DNA of 64,000 nt from a virus. The position numbers and the translations under genes were made by a program. The notes beneath the pieces were generated by a model that worked only from the letters and a program-made list of their open reading frames with translations, ran no database searches and was not told where the DNA came from. Positions 7,122 through 64,000 of this stretch are shown piece after piece (within the stretch, counting starts at the first letter, position 1; the number at the start of each line of letters is the position of its first letter). Location: the IMG/VR virus record IMGVR_UViG_3300035034_002581. One strand, 5' to 3'.

Positions 7122-7430
7122 TTAATCTTTAAGCGGCGATTGTGCCTCCAATAGACTAAATAGATCTTCAACTTCGCTTTCTTCCAATTGTTTGACAACT
7201 TTGTTTCTTTTTTCTGTCTTAACCTTAGCTAAAAGACGCATCATGTATGGATCTTCAAGGCCAATCCTCTGAGCAACTTCTTCAAACACAGACTGAATTG
7301 AGAGTTCACCATTTTGAAGCAGTTTAACTCTTAGGCGTGTATGAGTCGTTTTTGTCATCTCGACGTGAACTGTCTTTTTCTTTGTAATTTCCCCAGCAAG
7401 AATCGATGCTCTTGTTCTCTTCTTTCTCAT
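7122..7430 (-). CDS. basic hypothetical protein
   Basis: 102 aa with a K/R-rich N-terminus. Confidence 0.3.
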   Translation of the reverse strand: MRKKRTRASILAGEITKKKTVHVEMTKTTHTRLRVKLLQNGELSIQSVFEEVAQRIGLEDPYMMRLLAKVKTEKRNKVVKQLEESEVEDLFSLLEAQSPLKD

Positions 7431-7963
7431 TAGATACCTCCCGGACCAGCTCCTGCAGCTGCGGGTCTACGAGGCTCATTATCAGAAGGCTCAAGTGATA
7501 GATCGAACTGTGTATCGAGTGTCTCTTCTAGTGCATCTACAAATCCAGGACCATAGTTTTCTTCAACAAAGTTAATTGATCTGTTTAAGATTACTGTCTC
7601 AATGTCCAGGAGGTTTCGATAATTTTGAACAAGTCGAGCAACTCTACGAGCAAACTCATCAATGTCGATAGGTGGTTTGTCTGGCACACCCTCTGCATCC
7701 GCTTCGACATCAGAGCTATTAGGTACATCACCTCCTTCTTCGCTCTCTTCTTCGACATCGTCTTCGGGTGCCTCTATGAGGGTGGCCAGACTGTATAAGT
7801 AACCCTCTTCTTTGAGTTCTTCATCAATTGATTCATTTTCAAATCTAATTAGTAGTGAGTCGATTTGATCATCAACAGAGTCATCTGACAAGCGTGCTTT
7901 TCCACTAATGTTTGCAAGCTCTTCAAAGATGAGAGTTCGTAATGTGTTCTTTGATAGTTTCAT
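7430..7963 (-). CDS. acidic protein, shared-leader family member 1
   Basis: The N-terminus is MKLSKNTLRTLIFEELANISGK. The remainder is strongly acidic (EDDVEEESEEGGDVPNSSDVEADAEG). Confidence 0.45.
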   Translation of the reverse strand: MKLSKNTLRTLIFEELANISGKARLSDDSVDDQIDSLLIRFENESIDEELKEEGYLYSLATLIEAPEDDVEEESEEGGDVPNSSDVEADAEGVPDKPPIDIDEFARRVARLVQNYRNLLDIETVILNRSINFVEENYGPGFVDALEETLDTQFDLSLEPSDNEPRRPAAAGAGPGGI

Positions 7964-8244
7964 TAGTAGGTGTCTTCCTCAATCTCTTGCCCTGACGCTA
8001 GCATTTCGTACGAAAATGCACTTTTTCCACAATCGTAATCATCTTCGTCTGCTAAGATCTCTTCTCCACCACAACTTGGGCAACCACAACCGCAGTCGCT
8101 TCCTGTTTCATCGTCATACTCTTCATATTCGTCATACAAATCAGGAGAATACTCTTGTGGAACTAATGCAAAGCTGTCTCTTCCAATTGAGCGTGACAGC
8201 TCTTCTCTAATAATTCTTTTGAGCGTGCTTTTCTTAATTTTCAT
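7963..8244 (-). CDS. acidic Cys-cluster protein, shared-leader family member 2
   Basis: The N-terminus is MKIKKSTLKRIIREELSRSIG. It carries a CGCGCPSCGG cluster and an acidic tail. Confidence 0.45.
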   Translation of the reverse strand: MKIKKSTLKRIIREELSRSIGRDSFALVPQEYSPDLYDEYEEYDDETGSDCGCGCPSCGGEEILADEDDYDCGKSAFSYEMLASGQEIEEDTY

Positions 8245-8492
8245 TACTTTTCTCCGAATTCTTTTCGAACGTCCGATCTTTCATCATCGTCAAGTTCTTC
8301 ATCCCAGATTTTACCTGCAATTTCTCTTGCGTGATCTTCGTCATCTATGCCTGGAGTTTTTTGAACTGTATCTAGAGTTTCTTTCCACCAATTTTCGGGT
8401 GCACGAGATTCTGCATCTTCGTCAGCTTCTTCAATATAAGAGTTCAACGACTCTCTAATTAGAGCGCGAAGCCTACCTTTGGTAATTTTCAT
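8244..8492 (-). CDS. acidic protein, shared-leader family member 3
   Basis: The N-terminus is MKITKGRLRALIRESLNSYIEE. The body is D/E-rich. Confidence 0.45.
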   Translation of the reverse strand: MKITKGRLRALIRESLNSYIEEADEDAESRAPENWWKETLDTVQKTPGIDDEDHAREIAGKIWDEELDDDERSDVRKEFGEK

Positions 8493-8515
8493 AGTTGATA
8501 CTCCTCTTTTAAGTT

Positions 8516-8839
8516 CTACAACGTCTGTCGAATTAATTCAATTGCGTTTTCTTCTGGCATATTTCTAATTAGGCTTTTGTACAACTGATAGTCTCTAAAT
8601 ACTAAATCCTCCAAAACATCTGCAGGATCAGCATCTCTTGGGATAGCGTCTTGGCTCCGATCTCTACGCGTACTCTGAATGTACTTTTCAAGATCAGTCT
8701 TTAGGCTTAGTGGTGTTTCACCAAATGCACTTGTGTCGCTTCTGCTGAAATTACTACTAAAGTACATTGGATCATCGTCGATCATCTCCTGTAGTACTTC
8801 TTTAATTGATTCTCTGAGAAGCTTTCTTGTCTTGTTCAT
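8516..8839 (-). CDS. shared-leader family member 4
   Basis: The N-terminus is MNKTRKLLRESIKEVLQEMIDD. Confidence 0.4.
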   Translation of the reverse strand: MNKTRKLLRESIKEVLQEMIDDDPMYFSSNFSRSDTSAFGETPLSLKTDLEKYIQSTRRDRSQDAIPRDADPADVLEDLVFRDYQLYKSLIRNMPEENAIELIRQTL

Positions 8840-9585
8840 TTGATTGCCTGCCCGATTCGATCTGCTTTCTTAAATCTTTCTTCGATTACTACCCAGTCAA
8901 GCTCTTTCATCATTGAGTAGATGTAAGATCTTCTGTCATCTAGGTAATCTCTAAAGTATGCATGTTCCCAAACATCGATAACTACGACCGGGTAACAACC
9001 AACTGGAATTGATGTATCGTGAGATTCTACAAAGAAGTTAATGTATCTCTGCAAAAATGTACTATAAGCACACACAGCCCAACCAGAAGCACCAGACATT
9101 GCATTAGCTACAAGATCGTATTGCCAGTTGTCAAAATTACCAAAGTCTCGTTCTAGCCTCATGTAAGATAGTGAGTCCATTGTAACTTCACTGTGCACAT
9201 CACTAATGTTTGCAAAGTACAGTTCGTGCAAGTAGACTGCGTTCATGTAGAAGATCTCATTTTGCTTTAAAGATCTATAGGTTCTGAAGTCGCTCTTTCT
9301 ATCTACAGTGTCGAGCTCTGCACTTATTCTTGTAAGTTGCTCTGTGTAATTCTCATACAGCTTCTTGTGTGCATGCTTAGCTTTTTTTGAAAGAAGCTCT
9401 GTAGGCAAGTTATAAGTTTTTGCAAGTGCCACATACGATTCGTTTAGAGTACTAGATGAAGACTCTCGCTTTATGCCAAGATCTTTCTGTATTCCTTCTA
9501 ATACTTTTCGCTGTGTTTCTTTTAGATCAGTCAAGTTTATATTCCTTTTCGAGTTCTTTTCTCGAGACCGTAAATTCTTCACCAT
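8836..9585 (-). CDS. Fe/Mn superoxide dismutase-like protein with N-terminal extension
   Basis: The C-terminal motif VVVIDVWEHAYFRDY matches the Fe/Mn-SOD signature D-x-W-E-H-[STA]-[FY]-[FY]. An upstream His-rich helix (KHAHKKLYENY, LHELYF) is consistent with the metal ligands. A ~60-aa N-terminal extension is not typical of SOD. Confidence 0.65.
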   Translation of the reverse strand: MVKNLRSREKNSKRNINLTDLKETQRKVLEGIQKDLGIKRESSSSTLNESYVALAKTYNLPTELLSKKAKHAHKKLYENYTEQLTRISAELDTVDRKSDFRTYRSLKQNEIFYMNAVYLHELYFANISDVHSEVTMDSLSYMRLERDFGNFDNWQYDLVANAMSGASGWAVCAYSTFLQRYINFFVESHDTSIPVGCYPVVVIDVWEHAYFRDYLDDRRSYIYSMMKELDWVVIEERFKKADRIGQAIK

Positions 9586-9799
9586 CTGGTGTCATGAGCA
9601 CAATGTCATCTATACCTAGTTGGGATATTGTGTAAAGCAGGTTCGTCTTGTTGTGTCTGATCTTAAGTCCGACATCAAGCACAGTATGCTTGTCATCACC
9701 AAATCCTGATGTATCGAATTCTTGTAGATTCTGAAGATGCTTTTGATATGCTTCACGCATGAGAGTTATTAGCATCTTTTCATCAAGTACATTAGTCAT
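9527..9799 (-). CDS. hypothetical protein
   Basis: 90-aa ORF that overlaps the SOD-like gene start by ~59 nt. One of the two starts is probably mis-set. Confidence 0.25.
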   Translation of the reverse strand: MTNVLDEKMLITLMREAYQKHLQNLQEFDTSGFGDDKHTVLDVGLKIRHNKTNLLYTISQLGIDDIVLMTPDGEEFTVSRKELEKEYKLD

Positions 9800-15106: not shown

Positions 15107-15484
15107 TCAATCGTCACTTTTCATTTCTGTTATAACAGATTCATCAAGAAATGCGTTAGCGAGTGGAAAACCTTTATTTTCAATTTTGCAACGATACTGA
15201 AAATGAACGTTGCCGTCGACCCGCTGATCTTGAATTTCCTCTATCTTGAGAGAAACTTGTGTTGTAACTGTGTCTCCAATCTGGTATTTAAACAAAGATT
15301 TTACGTACATTTCATGAATATTCTTGTGAGATACATTGTGAGTTTCTCCTGCTAGACCGATCAAATCGTAGAATACTCCCTTGCGAGTTATTCTGATTTC
15401 GTCTACTGAGAAGACATGCTTTGTATCTCTGTCTATAAACTTAACGTAGTCACCTATCTTAAACATTTTACTCCTTTGAATCAA
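15107..15484 (-). CDS. small KOW/SH3-like protein, tandem two-repeat member of the GD(L/Y)V family
   Basis: 125 aa with two internal copies (FKIGDYVKFI... and YQIGDTVTTQ...). Confidence 0.35.
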   Translation of the reverse strand: MIQRSKMFKIGDYVKFIDRDTKHVFSVDEIRITRKGVFYDLIGLAGETHNVSHKNIHEMYVKSLFKYQIGDTVTTQVSLKIEEIQDQRVDGNVHFQYRCKIENKGFPLANAFLDESVITEMKSDD

Positions 15485-15683
15485 TTCTGCGAACTATTCT
15501 TAAAATAAGCTCTGCATTTTGTAGAAAAAAGTCCAGGACACGTCCATCTGTAAGCAAACATCTGTACTTTTGATGTTTGTTACCTTTATTCACAGATACC
15601 ACCAGCATAAGGTCATTGCTGACGATGTGTTTCTGATGATCTGGATGTCCCAGAGATACGAGGTCGCCTTTCTTGTACATCAT
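15468..15683 (-). CDS. small KOW/SH3-like protein (GDLV family)
   Basis: MMYKKGDLVSLGHPDHQKHIVSNDLMLVVSV. Confidence 0.35.
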   Translation of the reverse strand: MMYKKGDLVSLGHPDHQKHIVSNDLMLVVSVNKGNKHQKYRCLLTDGRVLDFFLQNAELILRIVRRIDSKE

Positions 15684-30123: not shown

Positions 30124-30954
30124 TTAAGTTTGAACTGACGGTACCCAATGGGTAGTTCGCTTATCTTTTGTTGTTTCTTTGATTACCTTGTTACCTTCGG
30201 GGTCTTCTTTCTTACCGTAAACTTTTAGCTTAAATTGGAAAGACCCTTCGTTTCCGTTAGGGCTCCTGTAGTTCTTTATAGTGGTTCCACGGTATTTGTA
30301 GCTTGATGACATTACATCACATATGATTTTGCATAAAAGCTCCCACTCCTTATCTGATACATCATAGACAGGACGATTAGGTGATATCTTTGACATATAC
30401 AGCACTTCTGCCTTTATATAATTTCCTACTCCTGCAAAATAACTCTGATTCATTAGTACTTCTGCAATTGTCTTCTTTGTTTGACGCAACTTAGCTTTTG
30501 TAATGAACTTTTTGCTTTGCAATACGCTTTGTCGCAAAGGATCCCAACCAAGACTGTCAAGTTTCTTTTGAAGAGCTTTGGATTCTGAAACATACTTTAG
30601 TGTTCCGAAATTTCGCATATCACAAAACACAAGCGTTGTATTATTGTCAAGTGTGAATCTAGCATGACCATGTTTTGGAAACTCCTCTCCGTCTTTTACA
30701 ATGGACCAGTTTCCTGTCATCCCAAGCGTATTAAAGATGTAAGGTGCATCTTCGAGGAGAAAGTAAATAAACTTACCCTTGGCACGAACAGCTTCAATCA
30801 TAGCTGGAAGAGAAGACTTAAGATCTTCATCACCAAAAGGCTTCTTTTCTCTTGAGTATCTTCCTGATGCGTATTGCACTTTCGTGATTGATCTTCCTTC
30901 TACAAATCGTGAGATTTGATCTACTACGATCGCAACTTCAGGGCCTTCTGGCAT
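30124..30954 (-). CDS. formamidopyrimidine/endonuclease VIII-family DNA glycosylase (Fpg/Nei)
   Basis: The N-terminus MPEGPEV is the hallmark Fpg/Nei motif, with Pro2 as nucleophile and Glu3. The size (276 aa) fits. Confidence 0.75.
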   Translation of the reverse strand: MPEGPEVAIVVDQISRFVEGRSITKVQYASGRYSREKKPFGDEDLKSSLPAMIEAVRAKGKFIYFLLEDAPYIFNTLGMTGNWSIVKDGEEFPKHGHARFTLDNNTTLVFCDMRNFGTLKYVSESKALQKKLDSLGWDPLRQSVLQSKKFITKAKLRQTKKTIAEVLMNQSYFAGVGNYIKAEVLYMSKISPNRPVYDVSDKEWELLCKIICDVMSSSYKYRGTTIKNYRSPNGNEGSFQFKLKVYGKKEDPEGNKVIKETTKDKRTTHWVPSVQT

Positions 30955-33791: not shown

Positions 33792-34396
33792 TATTCAAAC
33801 CTTGTTTCTACTGTTACTGTTCGCGTCATCTTAGGTACTCTAATGAAGTTCGCGATACCTAGATTTTTTGTTTCTGTAGGTGACAAATACCAGTCTGCGT
33901 TTCCACGCTTGAACATTTCCTTGATAAAGAAGTCTTCAGGCTTCCCACAGTTTCTTGCCATGATCTTGAAGAGTCGTTCATTCAATCTTTTCATTTCTTC
34001 TGTAGAAGCTACAATGTCTGTGTGCTTTCCTCTAGAACCACCTGATATTTCGTGTATCATGACACGAGCATTCTTGTCAATGAATCGATAGCCATCTGTT
34101 CCCATTGATAGCAGAAATGATCCACATGACATAGCTTTACCCACAGCAATAGTGGCAACAGGCTTCTCAGCGTTTTGAATATCAGATATCATAGAGATCA
34201 AGCTATCAACATATCCACCATAAGAATCGATGACGATGGGAATAACAGGCTGACCTGATTCATGAGCCTTCGACATGAATTCACTAAATTTCTTTGCCGA
34301 CTCTTCGTCGAACTTTGAAACTCTCATGAGTAGGGGCACGCTTCTAAATTTACACTCTGTTATTTCGTTGCCGATAATCTGTGTTGTAACTCTCAT
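33791..34396 (-). CDS. clpP: ClpP-family serine protease
   Basis: ATIAVGKAMSCGSFLLSMGTDGYRFIDKNARVMIHEISGG covers the ClpP catalytic Ser region (G-x-A-x-S-M-G) and His region. Confidence 0.75.
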   Translation of the reverse strand: MRVTTQIIGNEITECKFRSVPLLMRVSKFDEESAKKFSEFMSKAHESGQPVIPIVIDSYGGYVDSLISMISDIQNAEKPVATIAVGKAMSCGSFLLSMGTDGYRFIDKNARVMIHEISGGSRGKHTDIVASTEEMKRLNERLFKIMARNCGKPEDFFIKEMFKRGNADWYLSPTETKNLGIANFIRVPKMTRTVTVETRFE

Positions 34397-34725
34397 TTTC
34401 CCTCCAAGAAATCTGATAAAACATTATACGGCAAGGCACCTACTTTTCTTCTTTTTTCTTCGCCTTTTTCAAAAACAATGATTGTAGGGAGGCCTGATAC
34501 CCTTGATGCCTGTGCAAGAGCGGGCTCATCCTCAGCGTTTATCTTAACGAATTTGTACTTTCCAGGTGGTAGTGCACTCTCAAGCTTTTCAATAGTTTTT
34601 GCAAGCGTCTTGCAAGGTCCACACCAGCTAGCCCAGAAGTCGACAATGACTGTCTCTTCCGCCTCTAAAACCTCTTTCTTAAAGTTATCATCATTAACTT
34701 CTATCACTTTTCTGTCTCCATTCAA
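34393..34725 (-). CDS. trxA: thioredoxin
   Basis: WASWCGPCK is the active site. The length is 110 aa. Confidence 0.85.
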   Translation of the reverse strand: MNGDRKVIEVNDDNFKKEVLEAEETVIVDFWASWCGPCKTLAKTIEKLESALPPGKYKFVKINAEDEPALAQASRVSGLPTIIVFEKGEEKRRKVGALPYNVLSDFLEGK

Positions 34726-34988: not shown

Positions 34989-37472
34989 TTAGCATTTTCC
35001 GTGTCCACAAGCAGAACACATCACACAGCCTTCTGTATAGTGGAGTGCGTCAGGTGCACCGCATTCAGGGCAATCCTTAGTTCCGCCGGGTCTTGTTCCA
35101 TCTTGGATGTATGTCTTCAAGACTCTTCCGATAACCTTAGAGAAAGAGAAGAGATCCATATCTCTATCTCCCTTTTCAAGCTGTTCAACCATATAGTTGA
35201 TTGGCGCGCCGTGTCTAAGTGACAGAGACAAGATCCTTGTGAATGAAGAGTGATTCGGATTCTCAAATGCAGATACAACATCCTTAATTCTCAATTCGTC
35301 TTCATCACTATCCATAATTAGGTCATAGATTGATGCACGTGATTTACGTGGATGCTTTTCGATAATTCCATGCTTATACTTCTTAGGAATCTCTACAAAT
35401 TTAGAGAGGCCACCTAGAAGCTCGTATGGTCTTCCATCGAGAAGCCCAACTAGAATTGTCCACTTTTCTCCCTTGATTGTCTTTTGATGAATATCACAGC
35501 TTAAGGTTAGCGGCCTCTTAGGTGCATTGTTCTCTGAGAACTTTGTTTCTGCTTCGGGCTTTGCATCATCACTGATAAGTACGCCAGTTCTTGAGCCATC
35601 TCTATAGACGGTAAACCCCTTACATCCAAGTTCCCATGCCTTCAAGTAAACCTCACTGATCAATTCGGGCTTTGCCTCCTTTGGAAGATTGCATGTCTTA
35701 GAGATTCCATGACAGACCCAACGCTGTGCTGCAGCTTGGACCTCAACAGACTTTGACCAATCGACATCATTTGAAGTTGCTCCTACATATGGGCAAGTAT
35801 CATCAATCTCTGTTTTGTTATTGATCTCCATCCATTTCTTTGCTCCGTGATGGTAAACCTTAAACTCTTCCCACTTGTCACCCATGTCATCTATAAAATC
35901 AGGAACGACGTCAGAGTTGGAATCGACAATCTTCTTTCTTCTGACATGCGAGATGAGATAAGCTGGCTCAATTCCAGAAGTTGTCTGAGATAGACACGAA
36001 ACAGAACCAACGGGTGCTGTAGTTAGTAGGGCGATGTTGCGTCGACCATACTTCTTTCTCATTTCGTTTATATCGTCAGGGAGTGAACTCCAGATTCTAT
36101 TCAGAAACTTATGTCCCTCTTCAAGCTTGCTATCATAGACTGGGAATGAACCGCGCTCTTTTGCAAGAACTATTGAAGAAGAGTATGCACCAATAGCAAG
36201 CGTCTTGTAGATCTCTTCAGTAACTTCAATCGATGTATCAGTCCCATATCTTATTCCTAATGCAGCGAGTGTATCACCAAGAGCAGTAATTCCTAGGCCT
36301 GTTCTTCGACCTCCGAGAGTTGCTGCTTTGATCTTCTTCCAGAGGTTGAGCTCGATCTCTTTGACATCGTCTGGTTCGTTATCTGATCTGATCTTAGCAA
36401 TGATCTTATCAACTGCCTCTGTTTCAAGAAAGATTAGATCGTCCATAAGACGTTGTGCCTGTCCTGCAACCTTTCGGAACTTTAGGAAATCAAACGTAGC
36501 TTTCGGTGTGTATGGATTTTCAACGAACTTAATCAAGTTTACAACCATTAAGCGACAGCTATCATACTTGCTTAGTGGAATTTCAGCACATGGGTTGGTT
36601 GAGATTGTCTCATATCCAAGATCTTTGTAGCAATCAGCTGGACTCATTTCCGTAATTCTATCCCAGAACAAAGCACCAGGTTCAGCACAGTCCCAAGCAG
36701 CCTCTACAAAGGCATCCCATACTTCTTTTGCCTTAACAACCTTGACACATTCTGCGTCTTCAATAGATGCTGTTACAGGCCACCTTAGAGTAAACTCTTC
36801 GTCTGCTATTACAGCTTCCATGAATTCGTCTGTAAACTTTACAGAGATATTGGCGCCTGTCACTCTAGTTCTGTCGCGTTTAATCCCAATGAACGTCATG
36901 ATCTCTGGGTGCATGCAGTTGATGGTAATCATCAACGCACCTCTTCGGCCGCCTTGTGCAACTTCGCGGCACGAGTTAGAGAATCGGTCCATGAAAATTG
37001 CAATGCCGTCTGTTGTCCTTGCAGCATTAGACGTAGGAAGGTTCTTCGGTCTGATTGGTGAGATGTCAAAGCCTACGCCACCACGCCTCTTCATAATCTG
37101 GACTTGTTCCTGATCAGTGTAGAGGATGCCTCCATAAGAATCTTTCGGTGTGTCAATGACAAAGCAGTTTGACAAACTCTGAATCTGGTCTTTGTTCCCG
37201 ATTCCTGAGAGGGGTGATCCTTGTGGTATAACTGTCCATGAAGAGAGAAGCTCTTCAATAACGGACTCTGGCATAGGGTTGTCGAAGCTTGACTCTGCTC
37301 TAGAAAATTCTCCAGTAAGACGTTTATGCATGTCTTTTGGAGTTAGTTCAAGCAGCATTCCTGGCTGATCAAGTTTAGGTAATGAATACTTCGATGGAAA
37401 AACAGATGCTGCCAACTTGTCGCCGTCAAAATATTCCAGTGAAGCCTTAGTAACTTCTTCTAATGTGTACAT
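34989..37472 (-). CDS. ribonucleotide reductase large (catalytic) subunit
   Basis: 827 aa with RNR-type ten-stranded barrel motifs (e.g. ...TNPCAEIPL... finger loop with Cys). The C-terminal Cys-rich tail is CPECGAPD...CVMCSACGHGKC. No small subunit is seen nearby, so it may be class II. The adjacent thioredoxin is a plausible reductant. Confidence 0.75.
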   Translation of the reverse strand: MYTLEEVTKASLEYFDGDKLAASVFPSKYSLPKLDQPGMLLELTPKDMHKRLTGEFSRAESSFDNPMPESVIEELLSSWTVIPQGSPLSGIGNKDQIQSLSNCFVIDTPKDSYGGILYTDQEQVQIMKRRGGVGFDISPIRPKNLPTSNAARTTDGIAIFMDRFSNSCREVAQGGRRGALMITINCMHPEIMTFIGIKRDRTRVTGANISVKFTDEFMEAVIADEEFTLRWPVTASIEDAECVKVVKAKEVWDAFVEAAWDCAEPGALFWDRITEMSPADCYKDLGYETISTNPCAEIPLSKYDSCRLMVVNLIKFVENPYTPKATFDFLKFRKVAGQAQRLMDDLIFLETEAVDKIIAKIRSDNEPDDVKEIELNLWKKIKAATLGGRRTGLGITALGDTLAALGIRYGTDTSIEVTEEIYKTLAIGAYSSSIVLAKERGSFPVYDSKLEEGHKFLNRIWSSLPDDINEMRKKYGRRNIALLTTAPVGSVSCLSQTTSGIEPAYLISHVRRKKIVDSNSDVVPDFIDDMGDKWEEFKVYHHGAKKWMEINNKTEIDDTCPYVGATSNDVDWSKSVEVQAAAQRWVCHGISKTCNLPKEAKPELISEVYLKAWELGCKGFTVYRDGSRTGVLISDDAKPEAETKFSENNAPKRPLTLSCDIHQKTIKGEKWTILVGLLDGRPYELLGGLSKFVEIPKKYKHGIIEKHPRKSRASIYDLIMDSDEDELRIKDVVSAFENPNHSSFTRILSLSLRHGAPINYMVEQLEKGDRDMDLFSFSKVIGRVLKTYIQDGTRPGGTKDCPECGAPDALHYTEGCVMCSACGHGKC

Positions 37473-56148: not shown

Positions 56149-56862
56149 TTAGAGTTTAGCTAACATGTCGTCTAATGTCTGGAGTGATAGTGCAAGTCTG
56201 TCACCAGCTTTTCCGAGGCACATAGAGCGTCTAATTCTTGGAGTAAAGCTGTTGTGTAGGTAAAGCCAATCAGAAATAAGCTTCTTAGCTTTTGTCATTA
56301 CAATTGAGTCGTTGCTTTCGTATCCAATCGTGTTTCGTTCTCTTTCTCTTCTGTCACCAAATCCTTTAGGTCCTCTTTGCTTAGGACCTGCAGATGTGAC
56401 ACCACCAAAAGGAGCTTCTGCCAAACCAATCTTCTTCGCTTCTTTCATAATTGTCTCACGAAGTTCATCAGCAGTAAACTTTGTACCTTCGTGAAGCTCT
56501 CCGACAAGAGACTTAAGCGTGCTTTCAAGTTCTATGACAATGTCTGACATTTCTTGTCCTGCTTTACTTCTGCAAATAAAGCTATGCCATTTAGGGTTAA
56601 ACGCAGACAGATCTCTCAATGCTTGCTTAAGAGCATTTGTTGCATCTCTAGATGCTTGTGGTGAAAGCGTAGTAGGTGTAAAGTTTGAAGGCTCTGGAAC
56701 ATCCATAGGATCGTCAAACTGATTGTCAAATCGACGCGCGCCTCTTTGAGAAGGGCCTGCAGATGTGACACTACCAAAAGGAGCTTCACTTAGACTAGAC
56801 TCTTCTAGTTTTTTTATCTCCTCTCTTACGATTTGCTTAAACTCTTTAAGTTTAATTCTCAT
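56149..56862 (-). CDS. shared-leader family member with internal ~135-aa duplication
   Basis: The N-terminus is MRIKLKEFKQIVREEIKKLEES. EAPFGSVTSAGPSQRG and EAPFGGVTSAGPKQRG are repeated, with a ~33-nt near-identical DNA repeat. Confidence 0.4.
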   Translation of the reverse strand: MRIKLKEFKQIVREEIKKLEESSLSEAPFGSVTSAGPSQRGARRFDNQFDDPMDVPEPSNFTPTTLSPQASRDATNALKQALRDLSAFNPKWHSFICRSKAGQEMSDIVIELESTLKSLVGELHEGTKFTADELRETIMKEAKKIGLAEAPFGGVTSAGPKQRGPKGFGDRRERERNTIGYESNDSIVMTKAKKLISDWLYLHNSFTPRIRRSMCLGKAGDRLALSLQTLDDMLAKL

Positions 56863-56880
56863 CTTTTTATCTCCGTTAAT

Positions 56881-57369
56881 TTAGTACTGTAGGACTGCGT
56901 TATCAAATCGAAGTGTCAAAGTTATGTCTGAAATGTCGTTGCTTTCGTAATCTAAATCACCAAAGTTAATTGATGTTGGGAAAGCACCCTTAATGTCCCA
57001 GAGTTCAACAACAGTACCAACGGGATCTAGCATTTTAAGCTGGACATCGCGCTTGTAGAAATCTGCATATCCACCACGTGCGGATACAGATTCATAGATT
57101 AATCTTAGCCATTCCATAACCTGCTGAGCACCTGATGGTGCGATTGGGTCATGAAGTGTAATGTCAATTGTTTCGAACTTCGTTTTGCCTGCAAGGTAAC
57201 GCGTCGCATTAATGTATCCAATCTCAACTTCATCAGTTGAAATCGATGGTCTTGCAGCAATTTTCATCATGTAAGAATCGACTCCTTCAATTTGAAAAAC
57301 CCATCTAAACTTGCGCTTTGCTTCAAACTTGTTGGGTAACATGTCTGTTACGGAAAGTGTCTCTGCCAT
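56881..57369 (-). CDS. tail tube protein (T4 gp19-like)
   Basis: 162 aa. FEAKRKFRWVFQIEG is the typical gp19-family N-terminal motif. It is immediately downstream of the sheath genes. Confidence 0.65.
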   Translation of the reverse strand: MAETLSVTDMLPNKFEAKRKFRWVFQIEGVDSYMMKIAARPSISTDEVEIGYINATRYLAGKTKFETIDITLHDPIAPSGAQQVMEWLRLIYESVSARGGYADFYKRDVQLKMLDPVGTVVELWDIKGAFPTSINFGDLDYESNDISDITLTLRFDNAVLQY

Positions 57370-57417
57370 TTTAGAAAACTCCTATTACATTACTACATAT
57401 CATTAAGAACAAACTTA

Positions 57418-58143
57418 TTACCTCTTTGAGTCGAAAAGTACATTATAAAGAGACACTTTCGACTCCTTGACACCTTTGCGCCTATCAAGTATTTCGCGTG
57501 CGACCGATACTACACTCTTGTATATTTCTTGAGGTTCTTTGTCCGGAAAATCACCTGATTTGTATAGCTTTTGTGTGATTCTTCCTGCGAGCGAACTGTG
57601 ACCTTTAAGACCAGCAATATCACCGAGTTCTGTTGGGTTCATGGGCAGAACCTTTGCAATCTTGCGTCTTAGATCCTGATCATGTTCTCCTGTCCCTGAC
57701 TTTTTGGCAACTTCTACTGCCTTCATCGCATCTTCAATGTTAAGTTGTGGGTATTTTTTAATTATGTTCTGTGCAAGTGTCTTGATCATTCTGCCTGATA
57801 TTTCACTTGCATCGTACTGCCCAAAGACTTTTGACGCGTATCTAATTGCGACACCAATCTGAGCTGATTCAATCAATACTGACTCATTAACTACGCCCTG
57901 AAATACAAGCTCGTCCATGACGTCATCTAGAAGGTCGAAGTCAAAATTGGAAGGATCTGCATAGCCAGAACTTATAAGCTCATCGTGAACGAACGATTCA
58001 AGTTCGGACTCAATGTAATACTCGTCCCTGATCATGTCACCGTACTGTTGAGCAATATCACTGGCAATTTGGCTAGCAGACGGTGCTATAGCATTCATCT
58101 CTGTCAAAATCAAATTGCGCAGTGTAGCTTTGTTCAACCTCAT
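57418..58143 (-). CDS. shared-leader family member located between sheath and tube genes
   Basis: The N-terminus is MRLNKATLRNLILTEMNAIAPS. Confidence 0.4.
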   Translation of the reverse strand: MRLNKATLRNLILTEMNAIAPSASQIASDIAQQYGDMIRDEYYIESELESFVHDELISSGYADPSNFDFDLLDDVMDELVFQGVVNESVLIESAQIGVAIRYASKVFGQYDASEISGRMIKTLAQNIIKKYPQLNIEDAMKAVEVAKKSGTGEHDQDLRRKIAKVLPMNPTELGDIAGLKGHSSLAGRITQKLYKSGDFPDKEPQEIYKSVVSVAREILDRRKGVKESKVSLYNVLFDSKR

Positions 58144-58145
58144 GA

Positions 58146-61136
58146 TTATACCTCAGCACCTGCGTTTGTAACAACGAAGTCGATTCCGACGAACTCTGCT
58201 GTCTTAGTAGGCTGTACAAAGATTTGTCCTCGAATCGTCTTGTTTTCGATGTCTGCAGCCGACGTTGTTGTTGTATCAATTCTAACCCTGAATCTTTCAA
58301 CACCCTGAAGCTCTTGAATTCTTTGCAGTCTTGGACGAACTAGTGTTTCAAACTTAGATAGAGTTGTTGCTCTAGCTGGCTCAAAGATTAGTCGATCTGC
58401 AATCTGCTTGACTTGGCGTCTAACTTCAATTAGCAAGCGTCTTACGTTAACTCTGTCAAGTGAGCTTGCTGTTGAAAGAAGTGTCTTCTGACCCCATACT
58501 ATTGGACCCGATGATCCTGGGAACTTAGTAATTGGGTTAATGTCCACGTCGTAAAGCTCATCAAGGTTTGAGCGGTTAAGGTTGACCGATGATTCTACTG
58601 AAGAGTTTAGTGCACCTCTTGCGAAACCTGCTGGAGCTGTCCATGGGTGACCAAGAGAGTCGTTAAGTGCAAAAGCACCTAGTACTACAACAGAAGGAGG
58701 AACCTTAACATTTGTAAATGTTGTTGGATCTTCCACAATCTGATCAGGGAAGTAAGCTGCAGCGAAAGAAGTATCAAGATTTCTGTTACTAAATGATGCC
58801 ACAGTGTTTGCAACAGAGACTTCTTGTTCTGATCCTGTCACGACAGTATTTAGAGTATCACGTTCTTCGACGTCCATGATGAACATTGCGTCGAATCGGT
58901 CTTCTGTCGTAATAATGGCTTGATCTGTGACGATTGAGTGTCTAATACCAGGAATAGCAAGCAGCTTAATATCAACTTCTGATTTCTCACCAATAACATC
59001 CAGAGCCTTTGTATAAGCGCTAACTGTAGCTGCTTCATCTTGTCCTCTAGAAGCGTCTGACATCTCTTCTACAATGGCGGCATTGGTAAGTTTTGCAGCC
59101 TTCTCATTGAAGATCCTAACTCCGTCGAATCCACCCTGTGTAAAGAAGGTAAACTTAGCATAACGTCTAGCAGTTAGGTCAGCAAGGTCTGTCTCAATAT
59201 TGAAACCACGTGTCTTGTTAGTTTCATTTGCAACAATACCACCAGTCCTTGAGTATGAAGCTGATGCCCATAGCTTAGGATCTGCTAAGCCGTTGGCACC
59301 TGTAACTACCTGAACTCTTTCTAGTGAGAACAAGTTATTGTTAAATCTGTCTGCATCATATACCGTACCGTCAGAATCTGCTGTACCCTCGTTGTCACCA
59401 ACCCAAGACTTCTGCCATACTGTGTGGTAGTGTGGGTAGTACTGTGTGTAACTGTCAAGGCTCTTATCTGAGACGAGTGTCTTGTTAGTTTCTGCAAGGT
59501 CAGTCTTCTTCTCAAACTGAACTCCCCAATGCAAGTTAGCGTTGACTGATTTCTTCGGACCTGTCCCAACAGCGACGTTGTCTCTGAATGGAACTGGAAG
59601 CTCTACGGCTCTTTCAATCGAAGTGCCCTGACCCGTAACGTGTACTCCCACATCTTCAGTGCCTGGGTTTAAAATACTACTACCTGATGTTACAAGGTGC
59701 TTAGGTCCTCTAAATCCTACAGGAAGCGAAACATCAGGGACTTCAGCATTGTTAACTGATGGTGCCATCTCGACCCTAATGTACTTTGATACGTTAGGGA
59801 AACTGCCATCAAGAACCAGCTTTTGTCCGTCTTCGCTCTTGTCGAAGTCAAAGTAGAAGTGCTGATCGCCGATTACCTTTGCAATGTATCTATCGTTAGA
59901 TGGATCCAAGCTAAGTTTAAAGAAGCTTTCAAGGACAAATTGATCTTCATCTGTATCAGACCAACGTCTAACAACTAGATCAAATGTTCCGTACTGATCA
60001 CGTTCTGATGTAGATGGCGCAATGTTTCTGATAGAAATCTTGAACTTGCCGTTTGCATACTCGCCGTCATCTAGTGAGTGAATCTTGAAGAGGTTCTTCG
60101 GAGACCCACCAAAGTTCTGCGAAACAACGAAAGGGGATTCCGGAGTTCTAAAGCGATCTTCGTAACTCTCGAAGTTTGGAACCGCAGATGAACCAGAGTT
60201 TCTTGTAAGTGTTGTCGTTGTCAAGAAACCAACAGGCTCTAGAGACGCGCCGCCGAATGTTGCTGCAGCGTCAATGATACCAGTGCCTGTAACAACTGCG
60301 AATGATGGGTGAATATCATAGTGTGTGTAAAGGTAGTGTCCAGTCTCTTCTATAAGGAGTGGATCTGTGTTTAAGACATTAGGGAAGTAATTGCTAGAGT
60401 CAACATCAAAAGATGCAGTAACAACACCAGGATACTGGCTAGTTGGCTTGTGTCCGTTAAGTATGACAACAAACTCTTGCTTACTACTCGATAGATCAAT
60501 AGTACCAGTGATTGCACCAGCAGGCCCCGCGGACGTCGCAGGTGTAGAACCATCAGGTGCTGTGTTGTTGTCTGTTAGAGAACCCGACATTGTTGGAACG
60601 ACACCAGAAGCTGCGAAGATGACGCCTCGAACAATAGGATGAGCCTTTGAGCTATCTTGAATACCAGCAGCACTGAAGACTGTGCTTCCTGCAGATTCTG
60701 ACATGTAGCAGCCCAAAAAGTGTGCTCGACCCGGAACACCATCAGATACAGCGAATCTGTTCGCGCCTAGCAGACCTGATGGCTGAGGCTGTTCGTCACC
60801 TACGACGAAGCCCGCACGAGTAACCTTACCGGCATTGTCACCAGTAGAAGTTCTCTTTTTACCATCACCGACGCCGAGGACTTTTAGATATGTAGCAGCT
60901 TGAGAGTTCTGAAGCCACTCATTGACAGCGAGCGGTCCGAACTTCTCTCCGTCGGTATCTCCAAAGACAACTTTGAAGTCGCTAAATTTTGCAAAAACAA
61001 TAGGCACGAAAGCAGGACCCTTTACTGATGTCCCGATGACACCTGCAGGAACACCCACAGGCTCAACATTTGAAGGACCGGATAGGCCTATTTCTCTTGC
61101 GCTAACGCCCGCACTTCTATAAGTGAGTTCAGACAT
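58146..61136 (-). CDS. contractile tail sheath protein (paralog 2)
   Basis: 996 aa. The C-terminal region IVWGQKTLLS...RVNVRRLLIEVRRQV...LIFEPA...RVRIDTTTTSAADIENKTIRGQIFVQPTKTAEFVGIDFVVTN matches conserved sheath C-domain features (WG.RT, VNVRR, FEPN-like, PAEFV-like). Confidence 0.75.
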   Translation of the reverse strand: MSELTYRSAGVSAREIGLSGPSNVEPVGVPAGVIGTSVKGPAFVPIVFAKFSDFKVVFGDTDGEKFGPLAVNEWLQNSQAATYLKVLGVGDGKKRTSTGDNAGKVTRAGFVVGDEQPQPSGLLGANRFAVSDGVPGRAHFLGCYMSESAGSTVFSAAGIQDSSKAHPIVRGVIFAASGVVPTMSGSLTDNNTAPDGSTPATSAGPAGAITGTIDLSSSKQEFVVILNGHKPTSQYPGVVTASFDVDSSNYFPNVLNTDPLLIEETGHYLYTHYDIHPSFAVVTGTGIIDAAATFGGASLEPVGFLTTTTLTRNSGSSAVPNFESYEDRFRTPESPFVVSQNFGGSPKNLFKIHSLDDGEYANGKFKISIRNIAPSTSERDQYGTFDLVVRRWSDTDEDQFVLESFFKLSLDPSNDRYIAKVIGDQHFYFDFDKSEDGQKLVLDGSFPNVSKYIRVEMAPSVNNAEVPDVSLPVGFRGPKHLVTSGSSILNPGTEDVGVHVTGQGTSIERAVELPVPFRDNVAVGTGPKKSVNANLHWGVQFEKKTDLAETNKTLVSDKSLDSYTQYYPHYHTVWQKSWVGDNEGTADSDGTVYDADRFNNNLFSLERVQVVTGANGLADPKLWASASYSRTGGIVANETNKTRGFNIETDLADLTARRYAKFTFFTQGGFDGVRIFNEKAAKLTNAAIVEEMSDASRGQDEAATVSAYTKALDVIGEKSEVDIKLLAIPGIRHSIVTDQAIITTEDRFDAMFIMDVEERDTLNTVVTGSEQEVSVANTVASFSNRNLDTSFAAAYFPDQIVEDPTTFTNVKVPPSVVVLGAFALNDSLGHPWTAPAGFARGALNSSVESSVNLNRSNLDELYDVDINPITKFPGSSGPIVWGQKTLLSTASSLDRVNVRRLLIEVRRQVKQIADRLIFEPARATTLSKFETLVRPRLQRIQELQGVERFRVRIDTTTTSAADIENKTIRGQIFVQPTKTAEFVGIDFVVTNAGAEV

Positions 61137-61172
61137 TTAAAAATCTCCCAGTGTACATGTAGTAACTATCTG

Positions 61173-64000
61173 TTAGTTGAACGATACACCCGAATTCGTG
61201 ATAATGAAGTCAACTGCAACAAACTCGAACGTTCTCGTAGGTGTAACTATGATACGACCGTTTAGTCTATTTGACTCAATATCCTCTGATGTATTGTTTG
61301 ATTCATCCATCACAATATCGAATCTTTCGATTCCAGACTGAGTTTGAATGAGTCCTAATGGTGGCTTGACTAGCTTGATAAATCTTTGTCTAGTCGATGC
61401 TGTATTTTGTTCGAAAACAAATCTTTGAGCAATATCAATGACCTGCTTCTTAATCTCAAGCATGAGCCTTCTTACGTTAACTCTGTCAAGAGCAGATTGT
61501 GCCTGCTGCAGAGTTTTCTGTCCCCAAACAACGTATCCCTGTCTTGGGAATGTAGCAATAGGGTTGATTCGTGCATCATGCAGACTATCTCTATCTGCCT
61601 TATTGAGCCTAACTTCAACATTTGTGACAAAGTCAAGTGAAGCTCTGTTAAAACCGGCAGGAGCGTACCAAGGGTAAGATGATTTATCGTTGAAGGCAAG
61701 TGCTCCGAGTGCAGGAATTGAAGACGGAACCTTGACGCGACGCTTATTGACCGGGTCATCAATGAAGACGTCTGGGAAGTATGTTGCTACGTAACTGTTG
61801 TCAATAGCTCTTCCATTAAACTGTTCCTTCGTCTTTCTCACATCAGGTTTAGCCGTCGATGAATCGAACAGTCGAACTCCATCTTCGTCGTAAGAAACTG
61901 GGTCGAGAATGTACATAGCCAATGCGTACTCTCTTACCTTAGTAGATGCGTAGTCCGTTACAAAACTATCTCTCATGCCCGGTATTGTCAATATGTTTGT
62001 ATTGACTGTGAACGGATCAGTCATGATGTCTGTCGCAGCGCGATATGACTTAACAGCGTTGTTGTTTTGACCTACTCCGCCAACGTTAGAGGAAAGACCT
62101 GGTGAAACAAAGCTTGAAGCGGCGCCGCCACCTGTATCACTTGATGCTGCTTGATCATTCATTCTTGATGCATTAGGGTCAAGGACGTTAAATCCATCGA
62201 ATCCGCCGCCGAGAACTGTTGTGTACTTAGTAAACTCTGAGAACCTGTTAAACTCTGCAGAGGAAGTAAGTGCTACAAGTGTCGCAAGAGTAATTCTATC
62301 TAGACTTGAATCTGTAATTCTAAATCCAGTTACGTCAGGTACGCCATTTCTGATGTACGCCATTTCTTTTGCGTGTTCTCTAACAGAAGCTGTCAAATCT
62401 GCAACTGCACCGTTGCTAAATGCAACCTTTGCAAGTGTAAACTTGTTGTTGTTAAATTTGTCTGCGCCCGATCCTGTCACTAGCGCGTCTAGCTTCTTAA
62501 TGCCCAAGAATCTTGTGTATGACTCAATAAGTGGGTTTGCTCTTGATCCAGCATTTGAGTTGTAAATTGCGTTTGATACAGTTCCTGACTTAGGAAGTCT
62601 TTCAAACTTTACACCCCAATGAAGTCTATTGTCGACTAGTTCACCAATTCCTGGCTTGCCTGTGAATCCACCTGATGTAGATACAGCGCCCTTCGTAACC
62701 TTAAATCTAAATGGTAGTGGTGGCACGATTGATCCGGAAAGTACTCCGCCCGCAGCATCTTCTGCCGCAAACGCAAGACGTCGAGACAATACATCGCCTT
62801 CTCCAGGAAGTGCAACTACTGGATTGTCAGTCAGTGTATCAGAAGTTTTTAGTGCTTCAATACCACGGAAGCCGAATGGAAGTGCTCCGTCTGGGACAGA
62901 TCGCTTTTCAACTCCGGGTTCCATGATGACACGAATGTAGTTAGAGCGATTCGGGTACTTGCCACTGATCACAATTCGTCTATCATCAGCGCTATCAGCG
63001 TCGAAGTTATAGAATGCCTTCTTGTCACCAATTGCTCTTGCAATGTAGTTCTGTGATCTTGGGTCTAGAGAAACATTAGGATATCTCTCAAGAACTTGCT
63101 GATCAGTGTCATTATCATCCCACTTACGAACAGATACAGAGAACGTTCCATATGGGTTTGCAGGGTTAGATGACTTCTTAAGATCAGTAATTGCAATCTT
63201 GTACTTGGAGTTTGAGTATGCTCCATCATCTAGCGCTTCGAATCTAAACAGGTCATATTCTGTAGAACCATAAGGCTGTGAAATAAACCTTGTAGTTGTT
63301 GGTGTAGTATATCTGGTATCGAATCTACCGAATAGGTTGCGGAATATAACAGCGGTATCACCAGAAACCTCAGAGGTTAACAGGGAACCCGAAGTGATTG
63401 CAATTGAATCTGATTCTGTTGACACAGTTGCAAGTTCATTCTCAACCGTAAAGTCCGCATACAGCAAGTGCTCTTCTTCCACAAATCTATCAGGATCGGT
63501 GTTGAGAATCTTGCCGATGTAATTAGAGTTGTCAGGGTCGAGTGATGCTGTCAGTATTCTAAGCCCTGACAAACCATCGCCCGTTGAGAAAGCAGGCGTC
63601 GAACTTGAAATAACAAGCTTGAATAGCCCTGCGCTCGTTACAGTTGCTTGGTCATTAGCAGTATGACTAAAAGTTTCACCAGTTCCGTTGAGAACCATCA
63701 TTCTCGTGCCCGATGGCATCAAAACCATTGCTCTAACAAGTGAAGCAAAGTTATCTGTTGACGTTCCAACACTGTCATTCTGTGTTAAAGATGGGTAACC
63801 GACTGCTTCTGATGCTGACACAAAGTGTTTTGCAACCAAGAATTGTACAGCTCCGTTGTGACGGCCCAAGCTATCGTCAACGACTTCTGATGAAGTAAGA
63901 CTAAAGCCTGCATTTTTGACAGTACCTTTTGCCCTTGTTGCTTCAATATCAGATGAAGTATCGTTTGCACCTGCTCCAAGAACTCTAAGATACGTAACCG
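61173..64000 (-). CDS. contractile tail sheath protein (paralog 1; N-terminus beyond window end)
   Basis: It is paralogous to 58146..61136 (NRLHWGVKFE/NLHWGVQFE, PYGTFSVSVRKWDDNDTDQQVLE/QYGTFDLVVRRWSDTDEDQFVLE, and VNVRRLMLEIKKQVIDIAQRFVFEQN...FEFVAVDFIITN). The table start (TTG at 63869) is not the real start, because the frame stays open through 64000. Confidence 0.75.
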   Translation of the reverse strand, partial: VTYLRVLGAGANDTSSDIEATRAKGTVKNAGFSLTSSEVVDDSLGRHNGAVQFLVAKHFVSASEAVGYPSLTQNDSVGTSTDNFASLVRAMVLMPSGTRMMVLNGTGETFSHTANDQATVTSAGLFKLVISSSTPAFSTGDGLSGLRILTASLDPDNSNYIGKILNTDPDRFVEEEHLLYADFTVENELATVSTESDSIAITSGSLLTSEVSGDTAVIFRNLFGRFDTRYTTPTTTRFISQPYGSTEYDLFRFEALDDGAYSNSKYKIAITDLKKSSNPANPYGTFSVSVRKWDDNDTDQQVLERYPNVSLDPRSQNYIARAIGDKKAFYNFDADSADDRRIVISGKYPNRSNYIRVIMEPGVEKRSVPDGALPFGFRGIEALKTSDTLTDNPVVALPGEGDVLSRRLAFAAEDAAGGVLSGSIVPPLPFRFKVTKGAVSTSGGFTGKPGIGELVDNRLHWGVKFERLPKSGTVSNAIYNSNAGSRANPLIESYTRFLGIKKLDALVTGSGADKFNNNKFTLAKVAFSNGAVADLTASVREHAKEMAYIRNGVPDVTGFRITDSSLDRITLATLVALTSSAEFNRFSEFTKYTTVLGGGFDGFNVLDPNASRMNDQAASSDTGGGAASSFVSPGLSSNVGGVGQNNNAVKSYRAATDIMTDPFTVNTNILTIPGMRDSFVTDYASTKVREYALAMYILDPVSYDEDGVRLFDSSTAKPDVRKTKEQFNGRAIDNSYVATYFPDVFIDDPVNKRRVKVPSSIPALGALAFNDKSSYPWYAPAGFNRASLDFVTNVEVRLNKADRDSLHDARINPIATFPRQGYVVWGQKTLQQAQSALDRVNVRRLMLEIKKQVIDIAQRFVFEQNTASTRQRFIKLVKPPLGLIQTQSGIERFDIVMDESNNTSEDIESNRLNGRIIVTPTRTFEFVAVDFIITNSGVSFN

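Follow-up and report, generated by a model that had tools for sequence, protein, structure and literature searches.

The capsid-targeting sequences of phage T4 are N-terminal propeptides of 10–20 residues that form the only conserved part of its diverse internal proteins, and the proteases of T4, phiKZ and SPN3US cut after glutamate (PMC3012670, PMC5694885). Superoxide dismutase (SOD) homologues, too, are known as virion components: that of the chlorovirus PBCV-1 is packaged and active (PMC7019647), and the A45R protein of vaccinia virus is packaged and inactive (PMC9282662). Lambdoid prophages of Escherichia coli O157:H7 carry the Cu,Zn SODs sodC-F1 and sodC-F2 (PMC2569942). Here we describe a SOD of the Fe/Mn family encoded on the minus strand of a 64,000-nucleotide (nt) stretch of viral DNA (IMG/VR record IMGVR_UViG_3300035034_002581; hereafter the window), in which the enzyme core is preceded by an N-terminal leader that is common to many proteins of the same phage lineage. 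We tentatively propose that the protein is an active SOD built as capsid-targeted, protease-processed cargo, a reading that we hold to be plausible though short of probable, and for which we infer catalysis, cleavage, packaging and delivery from sequence and by analogy with T4.

The core of the protein is assigned to the Fe/Mn SODs by domain, sequence and structure matches that agree with one another, and the preliminary description of this DNA, made from its letters alone, had likewise called it a phage-encoded protein of this type. Residues are numbered below from the first ATG of the minus-strand open reading frame (ORF) 8836..9585, which counts 249 amino acids (aa), unless the 232-aa numbering of the structural model is stated. 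Pfam Sod_Fe_C (PF02777) matches at 5.4e-19 (68.6 bits against a cutoff of 20.9), and DVWEHAYF at residues 204–211, found by a regular-expression match, fits the pattern D-x-[WF]-E-H-[STA]-[FY](2), which we take to be PROSITE PS00088. By sequence, 170 SOD chains in the PDB match, led by the Fe-SOD of Aquifex pyrophilus (1COJ, 1e-23), which with the Pfam score puts the signature well above a chance match; a profile of alignment A1, which holds 86 relatives at 50–70% identity, finds 1COJ at 1.5e-36 and then archaeal and actinobacterial SODs. The AlphaFold model computed on A1 (predicted local distance difference test (pLDDT) 91.3, predicted template-modelling score (pTM) 0.82) consists of a two-helix hairpin and an alpha/beta domain, and its top Foldseek matches in the PDB are all Fe/Mn SODs, with template-modelling (TM) scores of 0.72–0.75 over alignments of 196–212 columns. 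The Pfam model of the N-terminal domain, PF00081, gives no match to the window protein at E ≤ 1. The hairpin domain is nevertheless present: the profile aligns full-length PDB SODs from model position 44, the model contains two long antiparallel helices (50–76 and 83–109 in the 232-aa numbering), and the homologues P0004 and P0010 carry a precomputed PF00081 match.

Alignment of the metal ligands, on which the preliminary description let its assignment rest, finds all four of them, at H73, H120, D204 and H208 (Table 1). Three (H120, D204 and H208) align unambiguously. At ligand 1, pairwise alignments shift the helix by one to four residues; H73 stands in an 'L-S + 6 residues + H' arrangement whose spacing is that of 'I-S + 6 + His' in 1COJ, and from this spacing and its invariance we assign it as ligand 1. 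The H-H-D-H set is kept in 86 of 86 members of A1 and in 194 of 195 distinct sequences of the window's clade (47–70% identity, IMG/VR loci included), most of which also keep Y80 and H189. Y80 is the probable gateway tyrosine, in a Y-V-x-x-L-N context (79 of 86), seven residues after the ligand histidine as against the canonical eight, and the position of His30 is taken by L76 (leucine in 78 of 86). H189, present in 75 of 86, occupies the outer-sphere glutamine position and aligns to His145 of the Mycobacterium tuberculosis Fe-SOD; four residues before H120 there is an alanine, as opposed to the glutamine of classical Fe-SODs. These features place the protein in the subtype with histidine at the outer-sphere glutamine position (Fe-using or cambialistic), within which sequence cannot call the metal preference. 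Given four ligands and the gateway tyrosine, the SOD part is most likely an Fe- or Mn-binding enzyme that dismutates superoxide. Within A1, a subclade of four sequences (reading LYDSDHE, LYDADHE, LYDTDHE and IYSSDHE) retains the four ligands and changes Y80 to D or S, H189 to D and W206 to H together, a triple second-sphere replacement that suggests a remodelled active site in that subclade.

The extension ahead of this core is real and shorter than first described. Homologues are 224–238 aa long, and their 'MTD...' N-termini align exactly at L18-T19-D20 of the window ORF. The codon of L18 is a TTG at 9534 with a Shine–Dalgarno-like AAGGA 8 nt upstream, and the JGI and Logan gene calls, which are independent of each other, both give a protein of 232 aa. 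With a start at this TTG, the gene shares 8 nt with the end of the upstream gene, stop codon included, as coupled genes typically do; from the ATG at 9585 the overlap would be 59 nt, and no Shine–Dalgarno sequence was seen ahead of that ATG. TTG at 9534 is thus most likely the start codon. The homologue N-termini, the AAGGA, the gene calls and the ATG overlap all indicate that the first 17 residues, the basic MVKNLRSREKNSKRNIN, are probably not translated. Of the basic N-terminal extension of ~60 aa in the preliminary description there remains a true extension of ~32 aa before the canonical SOD start, which is not notably basic.

This extension contains a leader helix, TQRKVLEGIQKDLGI, a diverged copy of a leader found across the lineage. 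AlphaFold places a helix over model residues 2–19, and of its conserved hydrophobic positions I32 is kept in 81 and L36 in 83 of 86 family members; another extension in the SOD family reads MNDKTLKQIIREELGL.... Sharing of the leader was assessed in 84 related loci (1.7 Mb, 2387 ORFs) with hidden Markov model (HMM) searches in both directions and reversed-sequence controls. An HMM made from SOD leaders only gave 65 matches at ≥6 bits, against 1 in reversed sequences; among the 22 matches listed as non-SOD, 19 begin within the first 10 residues of the ORF, although 6 of the 22 are actually SOD ORFs. Conversely, an HMM grown from non-SOD proteins only (consensus MKITKSQLRKIIREEL) identified 55 ORFs, 43 of them distinct and ranging from 74 to 1026 aa, in the 84 loci. 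Apart from two identical ORFs with no preceding methionine, the leader begins at the start of the ORF or after an in-frame methionine. Searched against SOD N-termini, this non-SOD model gave 3 matches at E ≤ 0.01 and 6 at E ≤ 1; 16 of 18 matches were N-terminal, and reversed sequences gave none. Non-SOD copies of the leader start MK..., and 33 of the 43 distinct ones contain I-x-E (consensus I-R-E). At least ten leader-bearing ORFs lie in the window.

We considered whether the leader might be a repeated 5′ DNA cassette and rejected this: eight leader regions are only 51% identical as DNA and have no conserved upstream sequence, and this low identity points to maintenance at the protein level. 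The suggestion that the extension is a targeting peptide fits a shared leader in spirit; a Sec or organelle-type signal was rejected, the leader instead being common to many proteins of the same phage lineage. Among sequenced phages, neither the leader nor the nucleotidyltransferase-like family described below was found.

Leader and enzyme are joined by a variable linker that ends in a hydrophobic-x-Glu (φ-x-E) junction. The linker from the leader to the junction glutamate spans 4–30 aa across the family and falls below pLDDT 50 at model residues 25–28. The junction itself follows the motif (L/I/V)-x-E-(S/A)-Y: E49 is kept in 195 of 195 close relatives, position 47 is L, I or V in 193 (F in one, K in one) and position 50 is A or S in 191. 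To within a few residues, S50-Y51 stands where cellular Fe/Mn SODs begin, and it also matches the mature N-termini of cellular relatives that bear signal peptides. In representatives at 50% identity, the glutamate is present in every phage-type cluster with an aligned N-terminus, including those that lack metal ligands, and most keep a hydrophobic residue at −2. As judged from these alignments, the junction is more strongly conserved than the active site across the wider family. The window's L47-N48-E49 is accordingly listed as a candidate prohead-protease cleavage site (Table 1).

The same layout recurs in an unrelated enzyme family. A 434-aa protein of the window (Table 1) has no Pfam or PHROG match, and the alignment of its family (A2) shows the G-S...D-x-D motif of nucleotidyltransferases; its Foldseek matches, which are weak, are to Pol beta, PolX, TENT5 and cGAS-type enzymes. 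In this family a leader (for example, LIRSLIRES) is followed by 14–100 residues and then by (L/I/V/M)-x-E↓G-G-L-K-A-P (↓, position equivalent to the candidate cut) at the start of the conserved core. E98 is kept in 35 of 35 members of A2, the −2 position is always L, I, V or M, and two members start at M-GGLK. The AlphaFold model of the window protein (pLDDT 89) drops below 50 exactly at junction residues 90–99, and the junction is thus of low confidence in both the SOD and the nucleotidyltransferase-like models. A 157-aa protein encoded in the neck region of this phage has the leader-like start MMLLRETIRRMITET and matches an ADP-ribosyltransferase domain of 'polyvalent' proteins below threshold (28.5 bits; cutoff 31.2). 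Ten other leader-bearing proteins searched against Pfam, and several against PHROGs, gave no informative match. In a 1022-aa ORF at 48194–51262, the leader-like DDLKQVIKKTMG stands at residues 39–48 and not at the N terminus; ~1025-aa proteins of related loci start directly with MKITESRIRRIIREEL, and this ORF may therefore have its true start further downstream.

The protease that such a junction would call for is encoded by a near-identical strain of the same phage. Look-up of the tail-sheath protein at 58146..61136 led to a 100%-identical contig (L172) that extends past the end of the window, and a gene on it led in turn to L174, an IMG/VR contig whose identity to window positions 58829..64000 is 99.5% across 5.2 kb. 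L174 encodes a gp21-type prohead protease (Peptidase_S77, 89.9 bits; phmmer against T4 gp21, 1e-21), a Gp23 major capsid protein (259 bits), small and acidic proteins and a 507-aa scaffold-like protein. When six capsid proteins were aligned with T4 gp23, L-x-E↓(T/S/A) fell on the L-T-E↓A of T4, which we take to be its maturation cleavage site after Glu65. The capsid N terminus LTEGIRSRHL resembles LIEGIRKDL of the SOD clade by eye, a weak lead only, and T4 gp24 starts MAKINELLRES. L174 also carries, at 197–2398 (~15 kb past the right end of the window), a T4-type portal gene split by an intein with an HNH endonuclease domain.

A shared leader together with a terminal, protease-type cut site suggests that the SOD is loaded into the particle. 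We propose that it is made as a pro-enzyme of three parts: an amphipathic leader helix of ~20 residues, a flexible linker ending in L-N-E49, and a complete SOD, S50–K249. The leader would be the common N-terminal address tag of the lineage and, by analogy with T4 capsid-targeting sequences, would dock the protein onto the prohead core; the gp21-type serine protease (S77) would then cut after E49 to leave S50 as the new N terminus. Once matured, the SOD would remain inside the head and pass with the DNA into the next host, where it could act at the onset of infection; alternatively, it might shield the particle and its DNA in sunlit water. It is possible, if rather more doubtful, that leader and φ-x-E constitute a general cargo-loading system in an uncultured marine T4-like lineage, sending varied proteins into the capsid for delivery. 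The cargo may in that case include the SOD, the nucleotidyltransferase-like, ADP-ribosyltransferase-like and small acidic proteins, and those of ~1000 aa.

Several observations weigh against this proposal. The φ-x-E motif is short, and E49 could be a structural cap specific to the SOD clade. The window's own leader scores weakly against the family leader HMM (E = 0.14). The leader HMM gave no meaningful match to T4 gp20–gp24, gp67 or gp68, which makes the resemblance to T4 an analogy and not a shown homology, and neither leader HMM significantly matched the scaffold and capsid genes of this phage. No cultured relative was found among sequenced phage records. As to catalysis, the +7 spacing from ligand histidine to tyrosine and the leucine at the His30 equivalent are departures from the canonical enzyme; the nearest cellular relatives show the same H-x-x-L-Y-x-G-Y-V helix, with the same spacing and the same leucine, and by this comparison the spacing looks like a trait of the subfamily more than a defect. 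Canonical SODs have a helix irregularity at this place, which a one-residue deletion could remove. Finally, the SOD gene sits among replication and nucleotide-metabolism genes and not in the head module. T4 internal-protein genes also lie outside the head module.

That setting is what commends a simpler explanation, in which the SOD is an ordinary cytoplasmic auxiliary enzyme that guards the replication and nucleotide-metabolism enzymes from superoxide and is never packaged; we regard this as doubtful, though a real possibility. In the same co-directional block as the gene lie thymidine kinase, dCMP deaminase, ThyX, RNR, thioredoxin, Fpg/Nei and PolIII alpha; Fpg and RNR (its large subunit), which the preliminary description had mentioned, are both confirmed. 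In the close clade, purifying selection acts strongly on the ligands, and the recognisable head proteins do not have the leader. On this account the leader would have some other role: it might help the protein to oligomerise, bring it to a phage complex or set its stability by way of the ClpP homologue of the phage, and a gene for a ClpP-family protease (33791–34396; PF00574, 96 bits) does lie among the nucleotide-metabolism genes, besides the S77 prohead protease elsewhere. What a cytoplasmic enzyme leaves unexplained is why, in the wider family, the junction glutamate and its hydrophobic −2 partner are better conserved than the ligands, and why the same junction appears in an unrelated enzyme family, some members of which start exactly after it. 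Nor was the leader found on the neighbouring nucleotide-metabolism enzymes of the window. Promoter scans were uninformative on timing: there is one occurrence of the T4 late-promoter motif TATAAATA where 2 would be expected, and sigma-70 sites were fewer than in shuffled sequence.

The wider family bears on what is under selection. A search of 1.84 billion representative proteins, clustered at 50% identity, returned ~40–44 phage-type clusters before a step down to the cellular subfamily. Eleven of ~44 phage-type clusters lack from one to all four ligands and keep the length, the leader, φ-x-E and a W-Q-x-D motif. At the four ligand positions P0161 has L, L, A and E, P0151 has L, F, N and N, and P0128 has N, N, H and S. 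P0161 and P0151, which have lost all four, occupy the same syntenic slot as the window gene, and we read them as orthologues, not extra copies; P0128 and P0133, likewise ligand-less, were found only on contigs of <1 kb. Protection of the infected cell from oxidative stress, as the preliminary description had it, can therefore not be the whole story, since these distant members retain leader and junction glutamate, and in two cases the slot, with no metal site.

The same clusters support another explanation, in which the family uses the SOD fold for structure or binding (for example, in the prohead core, in a protein that is ejected, or as a decoy that interferes with host SOD or metal handling) and the intact site of the window protein is an ancestral feature of secondary importance. 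The plastid proteins PAP4/FSD3, SOD-fold subunits of a larger complex, are among the PDB matches; that complex is, we assume, an RNA polymerase. We judge a mainly non-catalytic role for the fold unlikely: the window protein keeps all four ligands, ligand loss is confined to more distant clusters, and the near-perfect H-H-D-H conservation of the window's own clade would be difficult to account for if metal binding or catalysis were not selected.

Other variants concern the ends of the protein. In P0132 (325 aa), a single gene call joins the SOD to the small SH3-like ORF that otherwise lies upstream of it, the counterpart of the window's upstream partner ORF (Table 1). A clade of P0131, P0136, P0138, P0144, P0148, P0151 and P0152 (295–332 aa) has a Pro/Gln-rich C-terminal tail of ~70–90 aa and often shows A, H or S for the glutamate of D-x-W-E-H.

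The family is viral and, outside sequenced phages, widespread. Sequenced phages, 50,697 records in all, include no close relative of the SOD and only 2 weak matches, whereas 225 IMG/VR viral contigs carry a relative; on metagenomic contigs of 180–334 kb the gene is found again with the order of its neighbours preserved. The rarity of phage SODs claimed in the preliminary description thus holds for sequenced and cultured phages and fails for uncultured marine ones. In a scan of one genome per bacterial and archaeal species, a single-protein search found no close relative, and a profile search found a family-level copy on only three phage-like contigs (89–306 kb) of metagenome-assembled genomes (MAGs), labelled Bdellovibrionota, Methylococcaceae TMED69 and Flavobacteriales. 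The next-best cellular SODs reach ≤36% identity and show no alignment to the N-terminal extension; several whose ORFs were read have Sec or lipoprotein signal peptides in its stead. Among the latter are the closest cellular SODs, from Syntrophobacterales, Gastranaerophilales and Simkania MAGs (L087, L088 and L094), and to judge by these peptides the SOD subfamily seems to be exported in bacteria.

The idea that this is a host SOD, its contig being cellular and mis-assembled or mis-binned, finds some footing in the three matches labelled as bacterial and in a cluster member named after a Bathyarchaeota MAG, and is effectively refuted by the rest of the DNA. Nearly all long ORFs of the window lie on one strand; they include T4-like replication genes. 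Replication and recombination are represented by PolIII alpha, DnaB, a RecA/UvsX-like protein, a gp32-like single-stranded-DNA-binding protein and Dam, nucleotide metabolism by RNR, ThyX, thymidine kinase and dCMP deaminase, and the tail by two sheath paralogues, a gp19-type tube and a T4 baseplate protein. The synteny across long contigs, the many viral records and the fact that each MAG match is a single contig of 89–306 kb, with the next genomes distant and unaligned at the extension, speak the same way. The source is a large uncultured marine T4-like phage, apparently lytic.

Leader-bearing genes also surround the SOD gene. The homologues of its upstream partner start with the leader-like MKxLTExDIIRIMREEW in relatives, four tandem small acidic ORFs follow it downstream, and two further leader-bearing ORFs flank the tail-tube gene (Table 1).

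Table 1. Coordinates of the SOD gene, its parts and related features of the window; an empty cell means that no value is given.
Feature	Coordinates	Strand	Basis or remark
SOD gene, likeliest translated form	8836..9534	-	TTG start, 232 aa + stop
In-frame upstream stretch MVKNLRSREKNSKRNIN, probably untranslated	9535..9585	-	In no homologue; overlaps 3′ end of ORF 9527..9799
Leader helix, residues 24–38, TQRKVLEGIQKDLGI	9472..9516	-	Diverged copy of lineage-wide leader
Variable linker, residues 39–46	9448..9471	-	Low-confidence, flexible in model
Junction L47-N48-E49, candidate prohead-protease cleavage site (cut after E49, new N terminus S50)	9439..9447	-	Conservation
SOD N-terminal domain, residues 50–131: extended arm and two-helix hairpin with H73, Y80, H120	9193..9438	-	AlphaFold; profile alignment to 1COJ and archaeal SODs
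H73 codon, metal ligand 1, equivalent to His26 of E. coli SODs	9367..9369	-	Sole invariant His of helix 1, 86/86
H120 codon, metal ligand 2	9226..9228	-	Invariant; aligns to His of VVLHELYF in 1COJ
SOD C-terminal alpha/beta domain PF02777, residues 143–237, with H189, D204, H208	8875..9159	-	Pfam, PDB matches, Foldseek
D204 codon, metal ligand 3	8974..8976	-	GAT in sequence; invariant
H208 codon, metal ligand 4	8962..8964	-	CAT in sequence; invariant
Upstream partner ORF, 90 aa	9527..9799	-	Homologue directly upstream of SOD gene in 59/80 related loci
Four tandem small acidic ORFs directly downstream of SOD gene	7430..8839	-	Leader at each start, from N-termini
Acidic ORF	8516–8839	-	N terminus MNKTRKLLRESIKEVL
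Acidic ORF	8244–8492	-	N terminus MKITKGRLRALIRESL
Acidic ORF	7963–8244	-	N terminus MKIKKSTLKRIIREEL
Acidic ORF	7430–7963	-	N terminus MKLSKNTLRTLIFEEL; family follows SOD gene in 67/75 loci, also leader-bearing
Pol-beta-type nucleotidyltransferase-like protein, 434 aa	1627..2931	-	Leader, ~85-aa helical module, flexible I-A-E↓GG junction, core
Two leader-bearing ORFs, 56149–56862 (MRIKLKEFKQIVREEI) and 57418–58143 (MRLNKATLRNLILTEM)	56149..58143	-	Flank tail-tube gene
Tail-tube gene	56881–57369		Assigned by phrog_4542 and Pfam gp19
Fpg/Nei	30124..30954		
Thioredoxin	34393..34725		
RNR large subunit	34989..37472		

Elsewhere in this phage, a 368-aa PurA homologue (18004–19110) adjoins a gene of the GMP-reductase/IMPDH family (16990–18003) and PolIII alpha; its identification as PurZ, which would mark a 2-aminoadenine genome, was rejected, the PDB favouring PurA (1e-49) over PurZ (1e-8 to 1e-18). 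The tail-sheath paralogues are tandem genes for proteins of ~1000 aa (58146–61136 and 61173–64000+), ~1.5 times the length of T4 gp18, and in both the sheath-family matches are limited to the C-terminal third. Two clusters of three small paralogous ORFs each (68–125 aa; 15107–15886 and 19068–19739) show a beta-rich 'GDLV...' pattern, by which they are possibly SH3-like, and flank the Dam and PurA/PolIII genes. About 7 kb past the left end of the window, contig L173 encodes a GroEL-type chaperonin (19331–20941; Cpn60_TCP1, 536 aa).

The enzyme family is already known, and JGI labels some of its members 'Fe-Mn family superoxide dismutase'. What appears to be new is the viral clade, the modular N terminus common to many proteins, the conserved junction and the members without ligands. 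PolIII alpha marks a large metagenomic group (PMC9123017), and two studies of marine and aquatic jumbo phages, that one among them, make no mention of a SOD. Even on a plain reading, with 225 IMG/VR relatives and ~40 clusters at 50% identity, this is a large and previously undiscussed viral clade of Fe/Mn SODs. If leader and cleavage are as proposed, they amount to a sequence rule for predicting the head-borne, injected proteins of large marine phages; such cargo lists now come only from proteomics on the virions of phages in culture, of which this lineage offers none. An antioxidant enzyme would then join the known injected phage proteins, superoxide would emerge as an obstacle, either when infection begins or while the particle persists in sunlit water, and the mixture of ligand-intact and ligand-less members would be a natural experiment on the passage from an enzyme to a non-enzymatic viral component. 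Were the broader cargo-loading system also true, the SOD would be an injected Fe/Mn superoxide dismutase, of which we found no earlier report for a bacteriophage in the literature, and from its ligand-less relatives it would follow that the chemistry counts for less than the cargo slot.

Compared with described enzymes, the window protein is closest to the Aquifex Fe-SOD 1COJ (29% identity, TM 0.75), with which it has in common a long insertion between the helices of the N-terminal domain. It shares with 1COJ, 1MA1, 3AK1, 4FFK and 1IDS the two-domain fold, the His/His/Asp/His ligands and the outer-sphere histidine, and departs from them in having H-x6-Y instead of H-x7-Y and leucine at the His30 position; the module of leader, linker and φ-x-E is confined to the phage family. 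The sodC-F1/F2 genes are likewise SOD genes borne by phage genomes. They are, however, lysogenic-conversion genes that benefit the bacterium and encode Sec-exported periplasmic enzymes of another fold and metal, whereas the window SOD is devoid of a hydrophobic signal peptide and belongs to an apparently lytic T4-like phage.

The closest parallel in design is offered by the T4 internal proteins and gp24. Here, too, unrelated proteins of one phage have a short N-terminal sequence in common, and a gp21-family protease goes with a gp23-family capsid protein in which L-x-E occupies the position homologous to the T4 cleavage site. The leader differs from that of T4 in showing no detectable homology to it, in being longer (~16 aa) and in standing on far more proteins, including enzyme-like ones of 230–1026 aa; cleavage and packaging are proposed here by analogy. 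To our knowledge, no leader-and-protease logic exists for PBCV-1 A245R or vaccinia A45R, which have the Cu/Zn-SOD fold, unrelated to that of Fe/Mn SODs, and belong to eukaryotic viruses. With them the window protein would share, if packaged as we suggest, the use of a virus-encoded SOD fold that is carried in the particle and delivered at entry, and their active and inactive versions parallel the ligand-intact and ligand-less members of the phage family.

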